In this document: positions 10,509 to 20,246 of the stretch, piece by piece
Layout: each line of letters opens with the position of its first letter
How positions within the stretch are numbered: the first letter of the stretch is position 1
DNA from: Promethearchaeota archaeon
GTDB taxonomy: Archaea; Asgardarchaeota; Lokiarchaeia; Sigyniarchaeales; SOKP01
Length of the DNA stretch: 64,000 bases
Reading direction: 5' to 3'
Assembly: GCA_048941285.1 (NCBI GenBank)
Contig: JBHLNS010000006.1
Span: 42,338-106,337, forward strand
Position numbers and translations under genes: made by a program
The notes under the pieces: generated by a model
What the model was told of the DNA's origin: nothing
The model's input: only the letters and a program-made list of their open reading frames with translations
The model's database searches: none

Positions 10509-10700
10509 ATGATTCCAAGAAAAATTATTGAAGGATTAGTAGACAATTATGTTTATGTCTACATTAAAAATTTAGGTAAAGAATTTGCTGGAAAAATTAA
10601 TTCTATAACTGATTCGGATATAGTTGTTTTAGAAGATAAAAATGAGAATCTCTCTTATATTCCAATTTCAGAAATAACTGTCATTACTGAACGAAGATAA
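10509..10700 (+). CDS. small Sm/Lsm-like beta-barrel protein
   Basis: 63 aa; V.V....G.EF.G.I....D.VVL......YIP.SEI..I resembles Sm1/Sm2. Confidence 0.55.
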   Translation: MIPRKIIEGLVDNYVYVYIKNLGKEFAGKINSITDSDIVVLEDKNENLSYIPISEITVITERR

Positions 10701-10830: not shown

Positions 10831-12276
10831 ATGGTAATTAGTATAATCATAATTTTAGGATGTTTTATTGCTGTAATTATTTTAATAATCACTAATAAAC
10901 TAAATAGAGCCATCTCTTCATTACTAGCTGCAATTATTACTTACTTCGTCCTTATTTTTATTGAGGGTAAGGATTTTTCTATAATAGTTGAGTTACTATT
11001 TGGATCTCCCACTGAAGGATTTGTTAACTTGCATTCTTTAATTATGATAATTGGTACAATGATGATTGTACAAATTGCTCATGAAGCTGGTTCATTCCAA
11101 TTTATTGCTGGTAAATTAATTAAATTATCAAGAGGAAAACCTATTGCTTTAATGGTAATATTTTGTGCAGTGACGGTCTTTATTTCTGCTATTTTAAACA
11201 ACATTTTAACAGTCATTATAATTATTCCTCTAACGATTACAGTTTCAAGAATTTTAAATATAAATCCATCTCCTTATATATTAACCCAAGCAGTATTAGT
11301 AAATGTTGGAGGAACGGTCTTTTCAATTTCCTCTATTCCAAACATTTTAATTACAACTTACGCGGGAATAGAATTCTTAGAATTCTTCATTAACGTAGGG
11401 CTAATCTCCTTTATTATTTTTATATTTACTCTCCTTTTTTTCATTTTAATTTATAAAAAGGAATTAACAATACCGGAAGAAGGTCAAAAAGCATTAAAAG
11501 AATTTGATGTTTGGAATGTTGTTCAAAATAAAAGATTATTATATCAATCATTATTTTCTTTAATCATCTTATTAATTTTACTCACTCTTATTCCTTCTTC
11601 ATTAATTTCTCCAGATATCATTGCATTAACTATTGCCATTATTTTAATTGTTATAACGAGATTAGACCCTAAAGAAATTATAAATAAGATAGATTTTGAG
11701 TTGCTATTCTATCTATTGGGTATTTTTATAATTGTTGGAGGGCTTGAGGTAACAAGAGCAACGGAAGCCTTGGGAACTTTTATTTTAAATATTGGTGGAA
11801 GTAATCTTTTTTTTCAGATTCTTATAGTACTATGGTTTTCAGCTTATTTAAGTAGTTGCATTGATAATATCCCAATAACTAAAGTATTAATTCCAGTTGC
11901 AAATACAATGACAGAAACCGCTTCAATATTTAATAGAAAACAAATTTTTTATAGCCTTGCATTTGGAGCAAATTGGGGAGATAATTTGACACCATTAGGA
12001 GACAATATTCTTGTTGTGAATATTGCCGAAAAAAACAAGCGTCCTATAAGTTTTAAATCATTTTTCAAATTAGGATTTGTTACAACGAATTATCAATTAT
12101 TAATTATTTCAATTTATTATTGTTTAATTTTTTATTTACAAATAGGCATTATTATTTTAGCGATTGTGGGTTTATTTTTAATAGTAATCTATTGTTTGAA
12201 TAAATTTGGTTCTAAAAATATTAAATCACGTATGAATAATTTTAGTACTAAACTAAGAGAAATAATAATAAGGTGA
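10831..12276 (+). CDS. ArsB/NhaD/SLC13-family ion permease
   Basis: SAILNN, NVGG...SIPNILI, SSCIDNIP, GANWGDNLTPLG; ~12 TM. Confidence 0.88.
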   Translation: MVISIIIILGCFIAVIILIITNKLNRAISSLLAAIITYFVLIFIEGKDFSIIVELLFGSPTEGFVNLHSLIMIIGTMMIVQIAHEAGSFQFIAGKLIKLSRGKPIALMVIFCAVTVFISAILNNILTVIIIIPLTITVSRILNINPSPYILTQAVLVNVGGTVFSISSIPNILITTYAGIEFLEFFINVGLISFIIFIFTLLFFILIYKKELTIPEEGQKALKEFDVWNVVQNKRLLYQSLFSLIILLILLTLIPSSLISPDIIALTIAIILIVITRLDPKEIINKIDFELLFYLLGIFIIVGGLEVTRATEALGTFILNIGGSNLFFQILIVLWFSAYLSSCIDNIPITKVLIPVANTMTETASIFNRKQIFYSLAFGANWGDNLTPLGDNILVVNIAEKNKRPISFKSFFKLGFVTTNYQLLIISIYYCLIFYLQIGIIILAIVGLFLIVIYCLNKFGSKNIKSRMNNFSTKLREIIIR

Positions 12277-12283
12277 TTATTAG

Positions 12284-12922
12284 TTGGTTTTTAAAAATAT
12301 TTTAAGAATAAAAGCAGCTTTACCAGAAGTTAAACATATTGCTATGTTCTATAATAGTGGTATAATTTTTCAAACTACGTTTGAGCAAGAAACTAATATT
12401 CCTAAATTAGGCGAGAATTTAGCAGAAATTTTAAATCATGCGAGAAAGCTATATGATATCTCCAATTATAGTTTTGAAAATTATAAAAAAATTATTTTTG
12501 AAACTGATGATATTTCAATTATTATTTTAAAACTTGGTGAAGATAGTAATATTGCTCTGTTTTTCAAGAAAGAGGAAGAAAAAGAACTAAAAATAACAAC
12601 AATAAAACGATATATGACAAGAATCGAAGAAATAATTGATATGGATGAAAAAGAACTGATAATACAAGAAATATTATTGAAAGAAGAGGAAATTAAACGC
12701 TTAAGGGAATTACTCAGTGAGAGAGAAAATAAGATCGAACAATTAAATATAGAATTAAGTAATATAGAGAAAGCGGTAATTGAGGGAGATAGTAAAAAGA
12801 TTAATACGGAATTAAATGACCTAAGTCTTGAAAGTGTAAATTTGAAACAAGAATTAGAAAAAAAAAGTAATGAAATCGAGCATTTAAAAGAAAAAATAGA
12901 AAAAAGCCATAAAAAAGAATAA
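12284..12922 (+). CDS. roadblock/LC7-like domain fused to C-terminal coiled coil
   Basis: N-terminal helix-beta-beta-helix-beta x3 pattern (LPEVKHIAMFYNSG...IIFETDDISIIILKLGEDSNIALFF), then E/K-rich heptads; AGGTGA SD before TTG. Confidence 0.6.
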   Translation: MVFKNILRIKAALPEVKHIAMFYNSGIIFQTTFEQETNIPKLGENLAEILNHARKLYDISNYSFENYKKIIFETDDISIIILKLGEDSNIALFFKKEEEKELKITTIKRYMTRIEEIIDMDEKELIIQEILLKEEEIKRLRELLSERENKIEQLNIELSNIEKAVIEGDSKKINTELNDLSLESVNLKQELEKKSNEIEHLKEKIEKSHKKE

Positions 12923-12949: not shown

Positions 12950-13135
12950 TTATAGGGTAAATCCTAAGATTAAGGGAATTAAAAAAATTATCACCAGACA
13001 TATAATAGTAAGAATGATAAAAGACTCATTTGATTCTTTATTCAACTGTTCTCTAAATATATATATCAATAATATTAAAGATATAATAAACGCTCCATAT
13101 ACAAGCACAATTAATATCATTAGGTTATTTAGCAC
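12950..13135 (-). CDS. small 2-TM membrane protein
   Basis: 61 aa, two hydrophobic helices around a polar loop; co-oriented downstream of the coiled-coil gene. Confidence 0.5.
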   Translation of the reverse strand: MLNNLMILIVLVYGAFIISLILLIYIFREQLNKESNESFIILTIICLVIIFLIPLILGFTL

Positions 13136-13203: not shown

Positions 13204-13860
13204 TTAAGAACTTGGTTCTAAAGGTCTAACCTTTTCACGTTCATTTAATTTTTCTGATAGATCTTTCTTAAGATCAGCTAATTTGTTCTGTTTTTCAACT
13301 ATTTTTTTATTCAAATCTAGGGCATCGGTTTCAATCTTGGTTAAGTACTTCTGAATTCTATGATATGCTTCTTCTGCTTTAGAGATTTTCTCACCAGGTG
13401 CATTATTATTAACTAATTTTACATAAACCATAATTCTTTTTGCTAAATTAGCTCTTTCTTTAGCCTCATCAAGCTTCTTATTAGCAATTTTAACTCTTAC
13501 TTCAGTAATTTCAGTTTCAACATTTGCAATCTTTTTTTGAATATCAGCTATTTCTGTTTGAATTTTAGCAACTTCTTGGTTGTATCTCGCTTGTACTCTT
13601 TCCGCTTTTAAAAGATCATCACCTATTTTTAAAAGATCTTTCACTTTCTCTTTTTTTTCAACTAATTTCTTACTTCTTTCTGCCAATCTCTCTCGAACTT
13701 TTGCTACTTCAATTTCATTCCTAGCAAGCATTTCTCTGGCTTTAGCCCTTTTTACAGATTGCTTAGCTAATTCTTTCATTTCACTAGCAGATTCTTTTTC
13801 AATTTTGGCTAAATTTGAATTTTCTTCAGCTATCTTTTCAATATTTTTAACTTCTTCCAT
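13204..13860 (-). CDS. all-helical coiled-coil protein A (Ala-heptad stripe), paralog of 14892-15560
   Basis: Ala at 11,18,25,32,39,46,53,60 and 91,98,105,112,126,133,140; helix breaks at IGDD and NNAPG. Confidence 0.85.
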   Translation of the reverse strand: MEEVKNIEKIAEENSNLAKIEKESASEMKELAKQSVKRAKAREMLARNEIEVAKVRERLAERSKKLVEKKEKVKDLLKIGDDLLKAERVQARYNQEVAKIQTEIADIQKKIANVETEITEVRVKIANKKLDEAKERANLAKRIMVYVKLVNNNAPGEKISKAEEAYHRIQKYLTKIETDALDLNKKIVEKQNKLADLKKDLSEKLNEREKVRPLEPSS

Positions 13861-13905
13861 ATTCTCATCTCTTTTTTTATTTATTTTACTATAATTTTAT
13901 TTATT

Positions 13906-14079
13906 CTAACTATATATCTCGTTAAAATTATCTAAATCTTCTTTTTCTTCCTCATCTTCATAATCCCAATCATCTTCTTCGTCAGAATCATCATCTTCGT
14001 AATAACCATCATTTTCATTACCATAATCATCATTTTCATAATCATATTTCTTCTTATTTTCTTTCGGGTCCCCTTCCAT
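13906..14079 (-). CDS. 57-aa highly acidic protein (missed by ORF track)
   Basis: Manual translation MEGDPKENKKKYDYENDDYGNENDGYYEDDDSDEEDDWDYEDEEEKEDLDNFNEIYS*; AGGAGGT SD at 14096-14090. Confidence 0.8.
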   Translation of the reverse strand: MEGDPKENKKKYDYENDDYGNENDGYYEDDDSDEEDDWDYEDEEEKEDLDNFNEIYS

Positions 14080-14254
14080 TAAGTTAATTACCTCCTATAT
14101 TTTGTTGGTTAGTGTTTGTTATTTTTTAATTGTTGCATAGTATTTAAATGTTTTCATATGAAAACAAATCCATCTATCGACAACTTTATATACTTTGATA
14201 TCATCATTTTATTAAAAAAAAGAGAATCAAACTGGAAAAAAGGCTATATTTAAT

Positions 14255-14824
14255 ATGGCAAATAAAGAAATGAAGAAAACTAGCAATTTTCTTGGATTTA
14301 GGCTTTCAGAAGAAATAATTGAGAAATTAGAACTAATTGCAAAACAAGAGAATAAGACGCGTGGTTTGGTTGCTAAAGATGCTATTGAGCAATGGCTAAA
14401 TTTAGAATTATTAAATCAAACTAACCAAATGATTATGATATCCAAATCGATTTTTTCAAAAATTCTCTCTAAATTAGATGCACAAACTTTAAATATAATA
14501 GCTAAAGATTTTGCTGATTTATTTTCAGATCTAATGAAGTTTTCAACAGCAAAACCAATGAATGAAGAAACCTTGAGATCTTATACTGCTTTTTTAATTA
14601 ATTTTTTTGGCAAAAATGGATTGAAATGGTTTAATACACTTGATATTCAGACCAGGGAAAACTCTTTCATATTTAGAGGTTTGCACGATATGGACGAGGT
14701 CTATTCCAATTTTTTCACAGAATTTTATAAATATCTCCTATCTAAATATTTTGAACTAGAATTTACAACAAAAATAGAGGAAAAAACATCTAATTTAATC
14801 CATTTAGAATTTAAAATTAATTAG
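14255..14824 (+). CDS. ribbon-helix-helix (CopG-like) regulator with C-terminal putative ligand-binding domain
   Basis: FLGFRLSEEIIEKLELIAKQENKTRGLVAKDAIEQWL is an RHH pattern. Confidence 0.7.
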   Translation: MANKEMKKTSNFLGFRLSEEIIEKLELIAKQENKTRGLVAKDAIEQWLNLELLNQTNQMIMISKSIFSKILSKLDAQTLNIIAKDFADLFSDLMKFSTAKPMNEETLRSYTAFLINFFGKNGLKWFNTLDIQTRENSFIFRGLHDMDEVYSNFFTEFYKYLLSKYFELEFTTKIEEKTSNLIHLEFKIN

Positions 14825-14891
14825 AATTTTAAAATTCAAGAAAAATTTAATAAAGGATGAGCTCATAAAAATTAAAACAAGGTAAAAAATT

Positions 14892-15560
14892 ATGGAAGAT
14901 TTAATTATTATAGAGAAAGAAGCTGAAAACAATTTGAAAATAGCGCAATTTGAAAAAGAACTAGCCCAAAAATCAAAAATAAATGCTCTAGCTGAAATTA
15001 AAAAATCAAAAGCAAGAGAAACTCTATACAAACTTGAATATGAAATTGCTGACATAAAAAAAGAATTAGCTGAAAAGAGAAGTGTATTAGCAACCGAAAA
15101 ATCAGAAATTAAAAAAAATCAAATTTTAGATTTTTCAGAAGAAGAATTAAAAAATGAAAAAGATTATGCCAATTACAACAAAAATATAGCAAAAAGTCAA
15201 AAAGAGATTGCTGAGGTTCATAAGAAAATTGCTTCAGTTGAGAAGCAAATAGCTGAACAAAAATTAAAATTGTCTAAGGAAAAATTAGATGTAGCAAAAG
15301 CGCGACAAAATTTGGCTAAGAAACAAACGATATATGTTAAAGTAGCTCGAAGAACTAATTCAGAAAGTAAAATTTTGAAAGCTAAAAATAATTTCGAGGG
15401 TCACAAAAAAAATCTTTTAAAACAAAAGAATGACGTTTTGGAAAAGGAAAAGGATATTAAGAAAAAAGAAAATAATCTAGCAGAATTAAAAAAGGAACTT
15501 TCCTTAAAATTGGCAGAAAGGGAGAAAATAAGACACCCCGGAGTTATATTAGCCGAATAA
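14892..15560 (+). CDS. all-helical coiled-coil protein B, paralog of 13204-13860
   Basis: Same Ala register (11,18,25,32,53,60); shared KARE.L, YN...A, YVK, LA.LKK.LS.KL.EREK.R motifs. Confidence 0.85.
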   Translation: MEDLIIIEKEAENNLKIAQFEKELAQKSKINALAEIKKSKARETLYKLEYEIADIKKELAEKRSVLATEKSEIKKNQILDFSEEELKNEKDYANYNKNIAKSQKEIAEVHKKIASVEKQIAEQKLKLSKEKLDVAKARQNLAKKQTIYVKVARRTNSESKILKAKNNFEGHKKNLLKQKNDVLEKEKDIKKKENNLAELKKELSLKLAEREKIRHPGVILAE

Positions 15561-15608: not shown

Positions 15609-16700
15609 TTATATCCATTTTTTCCTTTTAAAGAAATACAACATGGTAAAAGCTATCGCAAACATTATGATGATTAAAATTGGATATGCAAACGGAGAGG
15701 AAAATTCAGGCATATAAATAAAATTCATCCCATAAAAACCTGCTAGAAATGATAGTGGAATAAAAATTGTGGATATAATCGTTAAAACTTTCATAATATC
15801 ATTCATCCTATTGCTAACACTGGATAAATACATATCTAACATTCCAAAAATGATATCCCGATAATTTTCTAAAAGATCACTAATTCTAAAAATATGATCA
15901 TATATATCTCTTAAGTAGATTTGTAAATCATCTCTGATTAACTTTGATTGTTCACGTTGCAGTTTATTGATTATTTCTCTTATTGGCCAAATTGATTTTC
16001 TTAATTCAATCGAAGATCTTTTCAATCGATAAATAAGCTGTAAGGTTTCTGGTTCAGGTTTCTTTATTAATATATCTTCAATATTTTCTATATCCTCACC
16101 TACTTTTTCCAATACTATAAAATAATTGTCTATTATAATATCAATTAAAACATAAAAGAGATAGTCTGCTCCCATTAATCGAACTCTTCCCTTTGGAACT
16201 TGTATCCTCTCATAAATAGGATTGAAAAGATTCGTATCTCTCTCTTGGAAGGATATTACATAATTTTCCCCCAAAATTAAGCTAATTTGTTCATATTCAA
16301 ATTCTTCTTCTTCTTGATTCCAACTTAATTTTTTTAATACTGCAAAAATAAAATTTCCATAATCTTCTAATTTAGGTCTTTGATTTGGATTTAAAATATC
16401 TTCCAATATGAGAGGATGTAAATCAAATTGGCGACCAATCTCTTCAATAATTTCTACTTCTGCAAGACCATATATATCAATCCATCTAATTAATGATTTT
16501 TCAATTTGAGTAAGATTTTTTTTAATATCCTCAAATTCTTGCATAATAAAACGGTCTTCTGTATAATCTGTTACCTTAATTTTAGTTTTTTCTTTTACTT
16601 TGTCCCCTGTATAAATTAAAGTTCCTGGAGGAAGCCCAACCTTTTTCTTTCTTTTACTAGATGGAATCATTTTATGTAAAGGTCGAGATATTCTCCTCAT
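15609..16700 (-). CDS. corA: magnesium/cobalt transporter CorA
   Basis: GLPPGTLIYTG, LHPLILEDI, QRPKLEDY, GFYGMNF, MPE. Confidence 0.95.
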   Translation of the reverse strand: MRRISRPLHKMIPSSKRKKKVGLPPGTLIYTGDKVKEKTKIKVTDYTEDRFIMQEFEDIKKNLTQIEKSLIRWIDIYGLAEVEIIEEIGRQFDLHPLILEDILNPNQRPKLEDYGNFIFAVLKKLSWNQEEEEFEYEQISLILGENYVISFQERDTNLFNPIYERIQVPKGRVRLMGADYLFYVLIDIIIDNYFIVLEKVGEDIENIEDILIKKPEPETLQLIYRLKRSSIELRKSIWPIREIINKLQREQSKLIRDDLQIYLRDIYDHIFRISDLLENYRDIIFGMLDMYLSSVSNRMNDIMKVLTIISTIFIPLSFLAGFYGMNFIYMPEFSSPFAYPILIIIMFAIAFTMLYFFKRKKWI

Positions 16701-17731: not shown

Positions 17732-18649
17732 ATGAAAAGACTTTATAAAATCTTCATTTGGATTACTATTATAGGACTTTTTATTCTAGGTTATTTTTAT
17801 TTTGGATTTGAGCAATTTTTATTAAATTTAATCCTTTTGAACATGGTTGCTTATGTCCTTAGATCTATTTTAATTGATGTATTTCAGACTATAATTAAAA
17901 ATTTGATTGTTCGTTATATCTTGATGATTATAATCAATATCCTGTGGTTGATATTTCCTTTTTGGCTATTGTCTGTTATTTCACCAATTTATTTTGTAGC
18001 AATAATCTCTTTTTTGGTTGTGGCAATTTCTCTGACTTTTCAAAATATTATAAATAATATTGCTTCAGGAATAATGCTTTTATCATCAGAAGGCTTTGAA
18101 GCTGGTGATTTGATTGAAACAAATGGAGTTCAAGGTATTGTAAAGGAGATAACCTTAAATAGCTTAAAGTTAGAAGATTTTGATGGTTCTATTACATATA
18201 TACCTAATAAAAATGCATTTAATTCCTCTGTAATCCGATTTACGCATAAACCTATAGAAAAGGGAAAAAAAATAGAAATCTCTAAAGTAGTCAAAAAAAT
18301 CGGTAAAATTATCACTGGTGAAAAAAAATTAACTCGTTATATTAAGGTAGTAGAACTTTTAGGTACTGTAGATTCAAATAAGCTTAATGAATTATTGGAT
18401 CCAATTTTTGAGAAATATGAACCCATATTTGGGAAAAAACCTTATTTTTATGCAAATACTACTGTTAGTGGGCTTATAAATCGTTTAAGTATAACTATTC
18501 AGATTATTACAGAAAATCCGAAGTTGATTTTAACCTACACAGATCCATTCTTGAAAGAAATCCTTTTTAAGATTTATGATGAAGAAATTAATTATGGTTG
18601 GAATGAAAAAGCACAAGAATCTTCACAAAATAGCAAAGAGGTGGATTAA
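17732..18649 (+). CDS. MscS-family mechanosensitive channel 1
   Basis: N-terminal TMs, SLTFQNIINNIASG, FEAGDLIE, GIVKEI, YIPN. Confidence 0.8.
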   Translation: MKRLYKIFIWITIIGLFILGYFYFGFEQFLLNLILLNMVAYVLRSILIDVFQTIIKNLIVRYILMIIINILWLIFPFWLLSVISPIYFVAIISFLVVAISLTFQNIINNIASGIMLLSSEGFEAGDLIETNGVQGIVKEITLNSLKLEDFDGSITYIPNKNAFNSSVIRFTHKPIEKGKKIEISKVVKKIGKIITGEKKLTRYIKVVELLGTVDSNKLNELLDPIFEKYEPIFGKKPYFYANTTVSGLINRLSITIQIITENPKLILTYTDPFLKEILFKIYDEEINYGWNEKAQESSQNSKEVD

Positions 18650-18651
18650 GG

Positions 18652-19563
18652 ATGGCAATCTTCAGTTCAGATTTAGAGGCATTAATATATCTTGCAATAA
18701 TAGGAGTTGGGCTTTATATCATTAATAAGTTGGTTTCTTCAATATTTGCTAAAAGTAAAAAAATACCCTTAAAACAGAAGGTTATTCTTAATTTTACTCT
18801 AAAAATAGGTGTTGTTCTTATTTTTGCATTTTTTATTATTGAGGGCTTTCCCGTTATTGGTTCAATCCCTATTGAATACACAGCAGTGCTTACTGGAGCA
18901 ATAAGTACTGCAATTGCTTTTGCTTCCAGTGGAATATTTTCTAATTTTATTTCTGGCATTGTTCTCATGTTAATAAGACCTTTTGAAGTTGATGATTTAG
19001 TTAAAATTGAAGACGATAAAGGAATTATACGAGCAATAAATATAACTAAAGTGAAATTAGAAACATTTGATAATATAATAATCGAGAAGTCAAACGCTCA
19101 AGTTCTTTACTCCAAAATTGTAAATTATACTGTTAAATTAGGGAAAAAAAAATCATTTGAAGATTTTAAAAATAAGATCCTCGCTCCTCAGGATATTGGG
19201 TTTAAAGGTATTTATGAAGATACATCAAGTTCAAAAAGGGAATTTGAAAGTAATTTAGAAAAGGCTTACAATTCCTTTTCTAGTAAATATTTCCCAAAAT
19301 TATATAATTATACTTTTAAAATGGCTTTTCCCTATAAAGGATTTAGAGTTCTCATAAATGAAGTAACAGAACTTTGTGATTTATATAATCAGAAGAATAT
19401 TTTTCGGATTAAACCTCAATTTGATATAGTAAATTTTAACATTAGCATAATTGTCAAATTTCGATTGTTAACTTTTAATCCCCAAAAAATATTTGATTTT
19501 CAACCTAAATTCGCAAGGGATGTCTATAATATAATTTTCAAACACAAAATAATGCAAAATTAA
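18652..19563 (+). CDS. MscS-family mechanosensitive channel 2
   Basis: AIAFASSGIFSNFISGIVL, RPFEVDDLV, ETFDN; 2 nt after the previous gene. Confidence 0.8.
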   Translation: MAIFSSDLEALIYLAIIGVGLYIINKLVSSIFAKSKKIPLKQKVILNFTLKIGVVLIFAFFIIEGFPVIGSIPIEYTAVLTGAISTAIAFASSGIFSNFISGIVLMLIRPFEVDDLVKIEDDKGIIRAINITKVKLETFDNIIIEKSNAQVLYSKIVNYTVKLGKKKSFEDFKNKILAPQDIGFKGIYEDTSSSKREFESNLEKAYNSFSSKYFPKLYNYTFKMAFPYKGFRVLINEVTELCDLYNQKNIFRIKPQFDIVNFNISIIVKFRLLTFNPQKIFDFQPKFARDVYNIIFKHKIMQN

Positions 19564-19598: not shown

Positions 19599-20246
19599 TC
19601 AGGCTTTACTTCTTTTTCTCCAAACTCTAATAATTTCTTTTTGTTTTTTTTGTTCTAATGGGTTTATGTAGCCTAGTAAGTCTTCAAAAACAATTTTTTG
19701 GTGTAAATGCGGTCGGAAAATAAATTTAAAATATTTTTTTTTCCAATAAAAACGTAAACTATTAAGATATAACGATAATTCTTTGATTTGTTGAGGTTTG
19801 ATTTCATGGTATGAGTCGATTATATTTTCTTCTGTGTTATTTTCAATATTTCTTTTTAATAAGCTTCCATCAGTTTTTAAAATATAGATTGTGCCATTTA
19901 AATAAGCGTCATTCTCCTTATTATGAGTTAATCCAAGATATTGAGCATATAATTTAAAGTTTTGACTAATTTTAGCATTTAGATAACTTTTTTGAATTAT
20001 GTCTCGATTTTTATTTTTGACTAATGTTTTAAGTTCTTGTTCTTCCATCTCTCCTTTACTGCTTTGTAATATTTCATAGTATTTCACTTGTAAATTGGTA
20101 AATATTAACATCTCAATATCAATATAAAAATCTTGAACCTCACGTGCTAAAATCCTGTCATCTTTAATATGGTCCCAGATTATAAAGAAAAGTACAGCAA
20201 TTGAAACACATAAACTAACATATACCAATATATCTTGTGGGTTCAT
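19599..20246 (-). CDS. hypothetical protein with N-terminal membrane anchor
   Basis: 215-aa ORF, one hydrophobic helix at the N-terminus. Confidence 0.65.
   Translation of the reverse strand: MNPQDILVYVSLCVSIAVLFFIIWDHIKDDRILAREVQDFYIDIEMLIFTNLQVKYYEILQSSKGEMEEQELKTLVKNKNRDIIQKSYLNAKISQNFKLYAQYLGLTHNKENDAYLNGTIYILKTDGSLLKRNIENNTEENIIDSYHEIKPQQIKELSLYLNSLRFYWKKKYFKFIFRPHLHQKIVFEDLLGYINPLEQKKQKEIIRVWRKRSKA

Follow-up and report, generated by a model that had tools for sequence, protein, structure and literature searches.

A lineage-restricted Asgard family of predicted BAR-like three-helix proteins encoded beside ion channel genes

In a 64,000-nucleotide (nt) stretch of DNA from a Promethearchaeota archaeon of the order Sigyniarchaeales (assembly GCA_048941285.1, contig JBHLNS010000006.1, positions 42,338 to 106,337; hereafter the window), two divergently transcribed genes encode the paralogous proteins A (positions 13204-13860, minus strand) and B (14892-15560, plus strand), which belong to an undescribed protein family restricted to one Asgard lineage. 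The typical family member is a basic, all-alpha protein of about 215 amino acids (aa) that is predicted to form one elongated antiparallel three-helix bundle. In the window, A and B point away from each other around the genes for an acidic peptide of 57 aa (acid57) and a ribbon-helix-helix (RHH) type protein of 189 aa (RHH189); a small protein with two hydrophobic segments (TM61) is encoded downstream of A and a CorA-type channel next to B. We tentatively regard A and B as regulated, BAR-like peripheral-membrane scaffolds that are tied to ion channels and to ion or osmotic homeostasis, a reading that we favor without calling it probable.

An earlier note on this DNA had called the two reading frames colinear paralogs, and this holds with exact coordinates: A (218 aa, pI 9.43, net charge +10) and B (222 aa, pI 9.52, net charge +14) align in BLASTP over residues 1 to 212 and 214, respectively, with 92 identities in 214 positions (43%, E = 3e-38), and the motifs that the note had listed as common to both (KARE.L, YN...A, YVK and LA.LKK.LS.KL.EREK.R) are all present in the alignment. 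Both proteins are K/E-rich, Lys making up 17.4% of A and 21.1% of B in line with the Lys-richness already noted, and the genome's four paralogues are all basic, their net charges ranging from +10 to +20. The Ala at every seventh residue that had been described for A, with a single Thr and with the same register in B, is borne out by the positions and by shuffling. The first stripe of A consists of eight unbroken Ala (11, 18, 25, 32, 39, 46, 53 and 60) and the second comprises positions 91, 98, 105, 112, 126, 133 and 140, T119 being the sole break. In B, Ala occupies positions 11, 18, 25, 32, 53, 60 and 67 of the first stripe, interrupted by S39 and Y46, and 93, 100, 107, 114, 121, 135 and 142 of the second, interrupted by S128. 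The most populated class of positions modulo 7 holds 10 of the 23 Ala residues in A and 9 of the 22 in B, which was matched by 43 and 151 of 20000 shuffled sequences, respectively.

An AlphaFold2 (AF2) model built on an alignment of 23 family sequences (pLDDT 93.5, pTM 0.77) predicts the antiparallel three-helix bundle that had been proposed from the sequence, with helices at residues 2-72, 81-151 and 156-210 and a short additional one at 74-77. The breaks are placed at about residues 73-80 and 152-155, in agreement with the earlier estimates of ~80 and ~155. The three long helices comprise about 70, 70 and 55 residues, the first two run antiparallel, and it is these two that carry the Ala stripes; helix 3 is devoid of a stripe. 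Alacoil denotes an antiparallel coiled-coil packing motif with Ala at every seventh residue and is a motif, not a family. Its two hallmarks, the Ala spacing and the pair of antiparallel helices, are found here in the Ala positions and in the model, so that A and B would contain an Alacoil that extends over about 50 residues of helix 1 and as many of helix 2, covered by the stripe-less third. When helices 1 and 2 are compared with each other by hhalign, they align with a probability of 72% (E = 3.5e-5, 30% identity over 61 columns), and residues 2-62 and 82-142 of A have matching ..N..(I/V)A starts as well as matching Ala stripes, whereas helix 3 aligns only weakly with either of them. The alignment of helices 1 and 2 suggests that they arose by internal duplication.

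The model also has the dimensions of a BAR domain, i.e., some 200-250 aa arranged in three long antiparallel helices. In a Foldseek search of the PDB, 34 of the 35 matches listed belong to the BAR superfamily (Lsp1/Pil1, SNX1/5/9/33, I-BAR, F-BAR, arfaptin, endophilin and ACAP4), the odd one being a chemoreceptor, albeit with weak scores throughout (best E 2.5e-3, TM-scores normalized by the query 0.22-0.65, best TM 0.65/0.75 for 8a1g_D). Of the BAR-likeness proposed in the earlier note, it is thus the proximity to solved BAR folds that stood, whereas membership in a BAR family of Pfam was not found. We class the predicted fold as BAR-like and make no assignment to the BAR families at sequence level.

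The earlier note had named ESCRT-III/PspA-like proteins as a second possible relationship. A and B would then be polymers of the ESCRT-III/PspA/Vipp1 type that coat and repair the membrane, and their size of ~220 aa, the long alpha-hairpin and a neighbourhood suggestive of stress indeed recall these proteins, though as a resemblance only. Profile and architecture both failed to bear the idea out. PF04012 does not match A or B (E <= 1) and its only sub-threshold match in the genome lies elsewhere; the model shows a closed bundle of three near-equal helices instead of a hairpin followed by short helices alpha3-alpha5; and no PspA, Vipp1 or ESCRT-III chain occurs among the Foldseek matches listed, PF03357 not having been searched on its own. 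We consider this relationship very improbable and do not uphold the earlier suggestion. Two further candidates were rejected. An alpha-pore-forming toxin of the ClyA/MakE type is met by the NCBIfam model MakE only at E = 0.44, and a hydrophobic head is lacking. A tRNA-binding arm was suggested by the Pfam model Val_tRNA-synt_C, which stays below its cut-off (20.2 versus 25.9 bits), spans 25 residues and was treated as coiled-coil noise.

Neither A nor B is matched by any Pfam or NCBIfam model above its cut-off, and the same is true for Pfam when 23 family members are scanned singly; among the 25 of 59 sub-threshold families listed for them there is no BAR-type model, and CT398_CC is found in 7 of the 23. 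Sub-threshold NCBIfam matches of the family are to the coiled coils of SMC and Rad50. Of 1023 candidates from a word-indexed search, 24 proved to be relatives at E <= 1e-3; they all carry Asgard labels and, where they bear a name, are termed 'hypothetical protein'. When 1.84 billion representatives of all lengths were searched exhaustively with a profile, 105 proteins matched at E <= 1e-3, of which 69 had E <= 1e-10 and 36 had E <= 1e-30. The full-length matches are single-domain proteins of 206-245 aa. Much longer representatives, considered as possible fused forms, match only piecewise; they are probably generic coiled coils and were discarded. At the level of whole genomes, 20 of 41 relatives possess the family, among them 18 of the 24 other genomes of the genus. 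In a sample of 301 Asgard genomes it occurs in 45, including 42 of the 68 from the taxonomic family of the window (f1), in the only genome of family f6 and, with a marginal match (E = 4.3e-4), in family f21, and was not found in the other 27 taxonomic families of that sample.

The genome studied here contains four paralogues, A and B in the window, C on contig 4 and D on contig 77. In a maximum-likelihood tree of 62 members, A falls into a clade of 21 sequences (support 100/99) and B into one of 16 (100/100), and a further clade contains D. Several genera are represented in the A clade as well as in the B clade. Since both clades are separate and span several genera, A and B are an old and conserved pair. 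Seven residues other than Ala (N14, K37, R42, K70, E115, R136 and K158) are invariant in the 23 aligned members, and there is little or no variation in the stripe columns A11, A18, A98 and A105. In one genome from another genus (G096), a tandem pair of family genes adjoins CorA and two MscS genes (L057, 6478-7840). Its two proteins belong to one clade of five sequences (98/100) outside the A and B clades, yet to different subclades of it, so that adjacent pairs also involve paralogues other than A and B.

Gene context ties the family to ion channels. We compared the surroundings of 58 family members with a length of 190 aa or more on 40 fetched loci from 35 other genomes, which come from one taxonomic family and one outlier genome and therefore give counts that are not independent: CorA lies within 3 kb of 38 members, an MscS-like gene within 3 kb of 23, the gene for a 212-aa protein described below within 3 kb of 27, and RHH189 within 500 nt of 23. 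The neighbourhood had been expected to be conserved and indeed is. The order of the genes is often rearranged; lasting adjacencies are those of B with a convergent CorA gene, of A, RHH189 and B, and of A with TM61. In the window, the gene for the CorA-type Mg2+/Co2+ channel (15609-16700, minus strand, PF01544, E = 3e-71) is convergent with B across a gap of 48 nt. This convergent pair is kept across genera and, with 44-47% identity, in a genome from another taxonomic family (G317). Our genome possesses exactly two CorA genes and both adjoin a family member. The second one resides on contig 77 (L004, 1492-3257), 86 nt downstream of D and in the same direction, where the rest of the island is lacking. 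In one genome (G014, L048, 6369-9942), genes for an SPFH/Band-7 protein (E = 2.3e-33) and a Usp protein (E = 5.7e-18) are inserted between D and CorA.

These observations are also what speaks for an alternative, which we rate as unlikely but as the main rival, namely that the family consists of soluble accessory subunits or regulators of CorA. The cytoplasmic funnel of Thermotoga CorA is acidic. A basic rod would dock on such a funnel and tune Mg2+/Co2+ gating, B acting together with the first CorA and D with the second, and the BAR-like shape would be incidental. Such a function is compatible with a scaffold. Beyond the abutment of both CorA genes with family members and the pairing of D with its CorA outside the island, it can draw on the 25 genomes of the genus, where a family member is encoded no more than 3 kb from 20 of the 24 CorA loci. 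Both family and CorA are present in 18 of these genomes, the family only in one, CorA only in one and neither in five, a distribution for which Fisher's test gives p = 6.5e-4, a value uncorrected for relatedness that overstates the association, given the kinship of the genomes and a possible origin of the five double absences in a single loss of the island. The five genomes without family and CorA (G004, G015, G019, G020 and G021; PF01544 at E <= 1e-5) are 88-95% complete. On the other side of the scale, CorA is present without the family in 16 of 16 genomes of the sister families f2, f3 and f4. Together with the five genomes that do without CorA, this suggests that the CorA of the genus is located on a dispensable island. 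Furthermore, genes of the A clade are tied to TM61, acid57 and RHH189 and not directly to CorA, paralogue C has no CorA in the fetched flanks of ~1.5 kb, and B and its CorA are convergent and hence not co-transcribed.

As to the genes between and beside A and B, gene order and spacing point at two divergent operons, acid57-A-TM61 and RHH189-B. That A and B diverge around an acidic peptide and an RHH-type gene had been read correctly from the outset. The gene for acid57 (13906-14079, minus strand) ends 45 nt upstream of A and encodes 57 aa with 49% Asp plus Glu and a net charge of -23. The peptide is conserved at its ends (MKGDPK.KKKKYDYEYDDY ... DEIYS) and is laid out as a basic KKKK patch, a YDYEYDDY motif, an acidic core and the C-terminal DEIYS. 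A homologous acidic open reading frame precedes 11 of the 21 A-clade genes and does so only where A adjoins the RHH gene. TM61 (12950-13135, minus strand, 61 aa) is encoded 68 nt 3' of A. Its membership in the operon of A is probable because a comparable reading frame of 57-75 aa with two hydrophobic segments follows 15 of the 21 A-clade genes; 14 of these 15 have an end of the ...LIP.ILGLIQE type when read by eye. TM61 is a candidate membrane anchor or partner of A.

RHH189 (14255-14824, plus strand) is separated from the downstream B gene by 67 nt on the same strand and is predicted to consist of an N-terminal RHH-like segment and a C-terminal alpha/beta domain. It is the presumed regulator of the system. 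The Pfam model RHH_1 (PF01402) reaches 17.0 bits on it compared with a cut-off of 20.5, and several of its 89 relatives bear the NCBI name 'CopG family ribbon-helix-helix protein'. In the AF2 model (pLDDT 83.9), helices at residues 19-31 and 36-55 follow an N-terminal stretch of low confidence. Residues 55-189 have no Pfam match at E <= 10. With the C-terminal domain, Foldseek finds H-NOX, BcsD, TRAPP Bet3/TRAPPC3 and YslB, all of them weak matches (E 4.7e-3 to 0.1, TM-scores 0.3-0.5). Two Thorarchaeota TRAPPC3 structures are among the TRAPPC3 matches. V4R, H-NOX and TRAPP-Bet3-like folds are mutually related, and we presume that the domain, as modelled, is a ligand-sensing domain of the V4R/H-NOX type. 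Strict orthologues of RHH189 (E < 1e-90) occur in 12 of the 25 genomes of the genus, all 12 with at least two family members, A and B among them. The six genomes of the genus that lack the family are also free of strict orthologues, and one of them has a distant paralogue.

The divergent spacer contains a perfect 16-bp palindrome, GTTTTCATATGAAAAC (14150-14165, without strand), 90 nt upstream of the start of RHH189. It is unique within the window. Copies with at most two mismatches number 17 in the 529,108 nt of the 40 fetched loci, and 14 of the 17 RHH-bearing loci have a copy at the equivalent place 5' of the RHH189 orthologue (in one of them, L067, inside an over-long reading frame call). 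The remaining three copies, each with two mismatches, are found near CorA or MscS1 genes (L040, L045 and L052) and are a lead only. The palindrome owes its weight solely to this conservation of position across loci, and it is presumably the operator of RHH189. The co-regulation of A and B suggested in the earlier note is made plausible by the conserved element. An operator serving a regulon across the whole window was considered as well and rejected: TTTTCNNNNGAAAA and the palindrome (at most three mismatches) occur once, and about one occurrence is expected by chance. The earlier note had overlooked three features: the miniprotein with two transmembrane segments encoded 3' of A, the sensor domain in the regulator and how very closely the genes are linked to CorA.

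Complex prediction was performed with a 36-sequence alignment for A and a 29-sequence alignment for B in three runs and with three controls. The A/B runs scored 0.60, 0.44 and 0.52 (median 0.52) compared with 0.00 for the best control, which the tool grades as 'weak support'; they agree in at least 98% of their contacts, with a partner pLDDT of at least 85. In the benchmark of the tool, 58 of 80 solved complexes reach its mark, as do 2 of 110 mismatched pairs; with scores of 0.60 or below, only 7 of the 80 solved complexes and both of these mismatches do so. The heterodimer proposed earlier is therefore compatible with the score and is not established by it, and the score carries no information on the shape of a complex.

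On this basis, the scaffold reading can be worded as follows. A and B would dimerise, as A/B and/or as homodimers, and would be held at the cytoplasmic side of the membrane by means of their basic surface and of small membrane partners, which would be TM61 for A and CorA for B and its paralogue D. There, they might stabilise or organise the membrane around channels under ionic or osmotic stress. The acid57 peptide might cover the basic face as long as this is not required, and RHH189 would bind the palindrome in the spacer and thereby control the module, with a domain that resembles sensors for small ligands. We infer the dimer geometry, the membrane binding, the action at the cytoplasmic face and the roles of TM61, acid57 and RHH189 from the fold model and the gene context described above.

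Several results weigh against this reading. Besides the relatedness of the genomes behind the synteny counts and the Fisher test and the presence of CorA without the family in sister families, these concern first of all the fold. No Foldseek match in the PDB reaches E <= 1e-3. An independent structure search, run on the Atlas's own model, led to generic long-helix neighbours with TM-scores of 0.50-0.64 (an MCP signalling hairpin, an HlyD hairpin, PPE and one FCH cluster), and it is therefore possible that the likeness to BAR proteins simply means 'long helical bundle'. None of the BAR-type Pfam models (BAR, Vps5, Pil1, IMD, FCH and arfaptin) matches A or B at E <= 1, a profile search of the genome gave no match of PF03114 or PF09325 at the A and B genes, and a profile search of PDB sequences found designed coiled coils only (7 sequences, E <= 1). 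Neither the sequences nor the AF2 model of A and B include a separate N-terminal amphipathic helix or hydrophobic segment. As for dimerisation, predictions in the band of the A/B score are, according to the tool itself, wrong in the majority of cases if the pairing is not likely beforehand.

Some of these points are shared by another explanation, according to which A and B are generic charged coiled coils without any role at the membrane, for example nucleic-acid-binding or structural proteins, that hitch-hike in an accessory island. Basic pI values, the richness in Lys and Glu, sub-threshold matches to coiled-coil arms in Pfam and to SMC and Rad50 in NCBIfam and the generic neighbours in the Atlas search all agree with it, and as genomes of one genus either possess or lack the island as a whole, the linkage to channels could reflect shared inheritance. 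We nevertheless find it rather doubtful. The adjacencies of family members with CorA, of A with TM61 and of A and B with the RHH gene outlast many rearrangements of the island, D is paired with the second CorA outside of it, seven residues other than Ala are invariant across 23 members, and a dedicated regulator together with a conserved candidate operator argues for a specific, regulated function. The scaffold reading can also be taken a good deal further, to a regulator-controlled Asgard scaffold in which an A/B heterodimer, anchored by TM61 and restrained by acid57, forms an eisosome-type domain next to CorA and MscS and is a true, diverged relative of BAR/Pil1 proteins. We consider this full version improbable.

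A comparison with eukaryotic BAR proteins reveals likeness as well as differences. Length (~200-250 aa), the elongated antiparallel three-helix bundle and the net positive charge are common to both, and paralogue pairs exist on both sides, SNX1/SNX5 in the BAR superfamily and A/B here, where a dimer is weakly supported. A and B differ from them in that no sequence profile matches and fold scores are weak, in that PX, SH3 or PH partner domains are missing and in that they are lineage-restricted and encoded beside CorA and MscS in the company of TM61, acid57 and RHH189. Among prokaryotes, BdpA has been described as a bacterial BAR-like protein that is proposed to sculpt membranes via a BAR-like coiled-coil domain (PMC8687657). 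BdpA belongs to another domain of life and acts in outer-membrane extensions, and no relationship with A and B is claimed. For Asgard archaea, Vps5-BAR proteins have been reported, often fused to Vps28 in Thorarchaeia (PMC10307638), and co-immunoprecipitation with Lokiactin detected two BAR-domain proteins that were not significantly enriched (PMC13716822). Like A and B, the published proteins, which are annotated as BAR, occur in Asgard archaea; as a difference, PF09325 (Vps5) misses A and B. PF09325 finds nothing above its cut-off in the present genome and has no match at E <= 1e-5 in any of the 301 Asgard genomes, and as control genomes are equally silent, the latter result is uninformative with regard to absence. 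PspA, Vipp1 and ESCRT-III have in common with A and B a similar size, a long helical hairpin and the theme of membrane stress, as set out above. In the literature, supplements listing published Asgard BAR proteins not being covered, we found no description of the family or of its channel context.

Asgard archaea draw attention as the nearest relatives that eukaryotes have among prokaryotes, a connection for which the machinery that shapes membranes is of central importance. What is new here is an unannotated, well-conserved family with a confidently predicted BAR-like three-helix fold and a genetic system that can be tested. If its members bind or shape membranes, they would represent a self-contained archaeal BAR-like system in a setting of ionic or osmotic stress; if they bind CorA, they would constitute a new class of CorA accessory proteins. 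This significance is limited mainly by the restriction of the family to one Asgard lineage and by a function that is so far deduced indirectly.

The island extends on both sides of the module. On the side of B, CorA is accompanied by a gene for a HAD hydrolase, a tandem of MscS-like genes (17732-18649 and 18652-19563, both plus strand; PF00924, E = 1.6e-16 and 8.1e-13) and a gene for a 215-aa protein (19599-20246, minus strand) that has no match in Pfam or NCBIfam and is conserved, with ~80% identity, at the island's edge in several genomes. The other flank is formed by a gene for a permease of the CitMHS/ArsB type (10831-12276, plus strand; PF03600, E = 6.9e-55) and the tightly coupled gene for the 212-aa protein (12284-12922, plus strand), which starts 7 nt after the permease gene and has kept this place in many genomes. 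The 212-aa protein has a globular N-terminal part and a C-terminal coiled-coil tail. A Roadblock/LC7 domain in the former was an impression gained by eye that we did not uphold, residues 1-115 being matched in Pfam only by DUF6849 (E = 0.002); a search of the Atlas for this protein found neither a model nor a named family. Further upstream, a 63-aa protein (10509-10700, plus strand) has sub-threshold matches to MM0924 in NCBIfam (30.9 versus 45 bits) and to DUF6897 in Pfam (19.9 versus 23.9 bits), and its homologues are encountered at varying places of the island, such as the interval from the RHH gene to B in loci L035 and L045.

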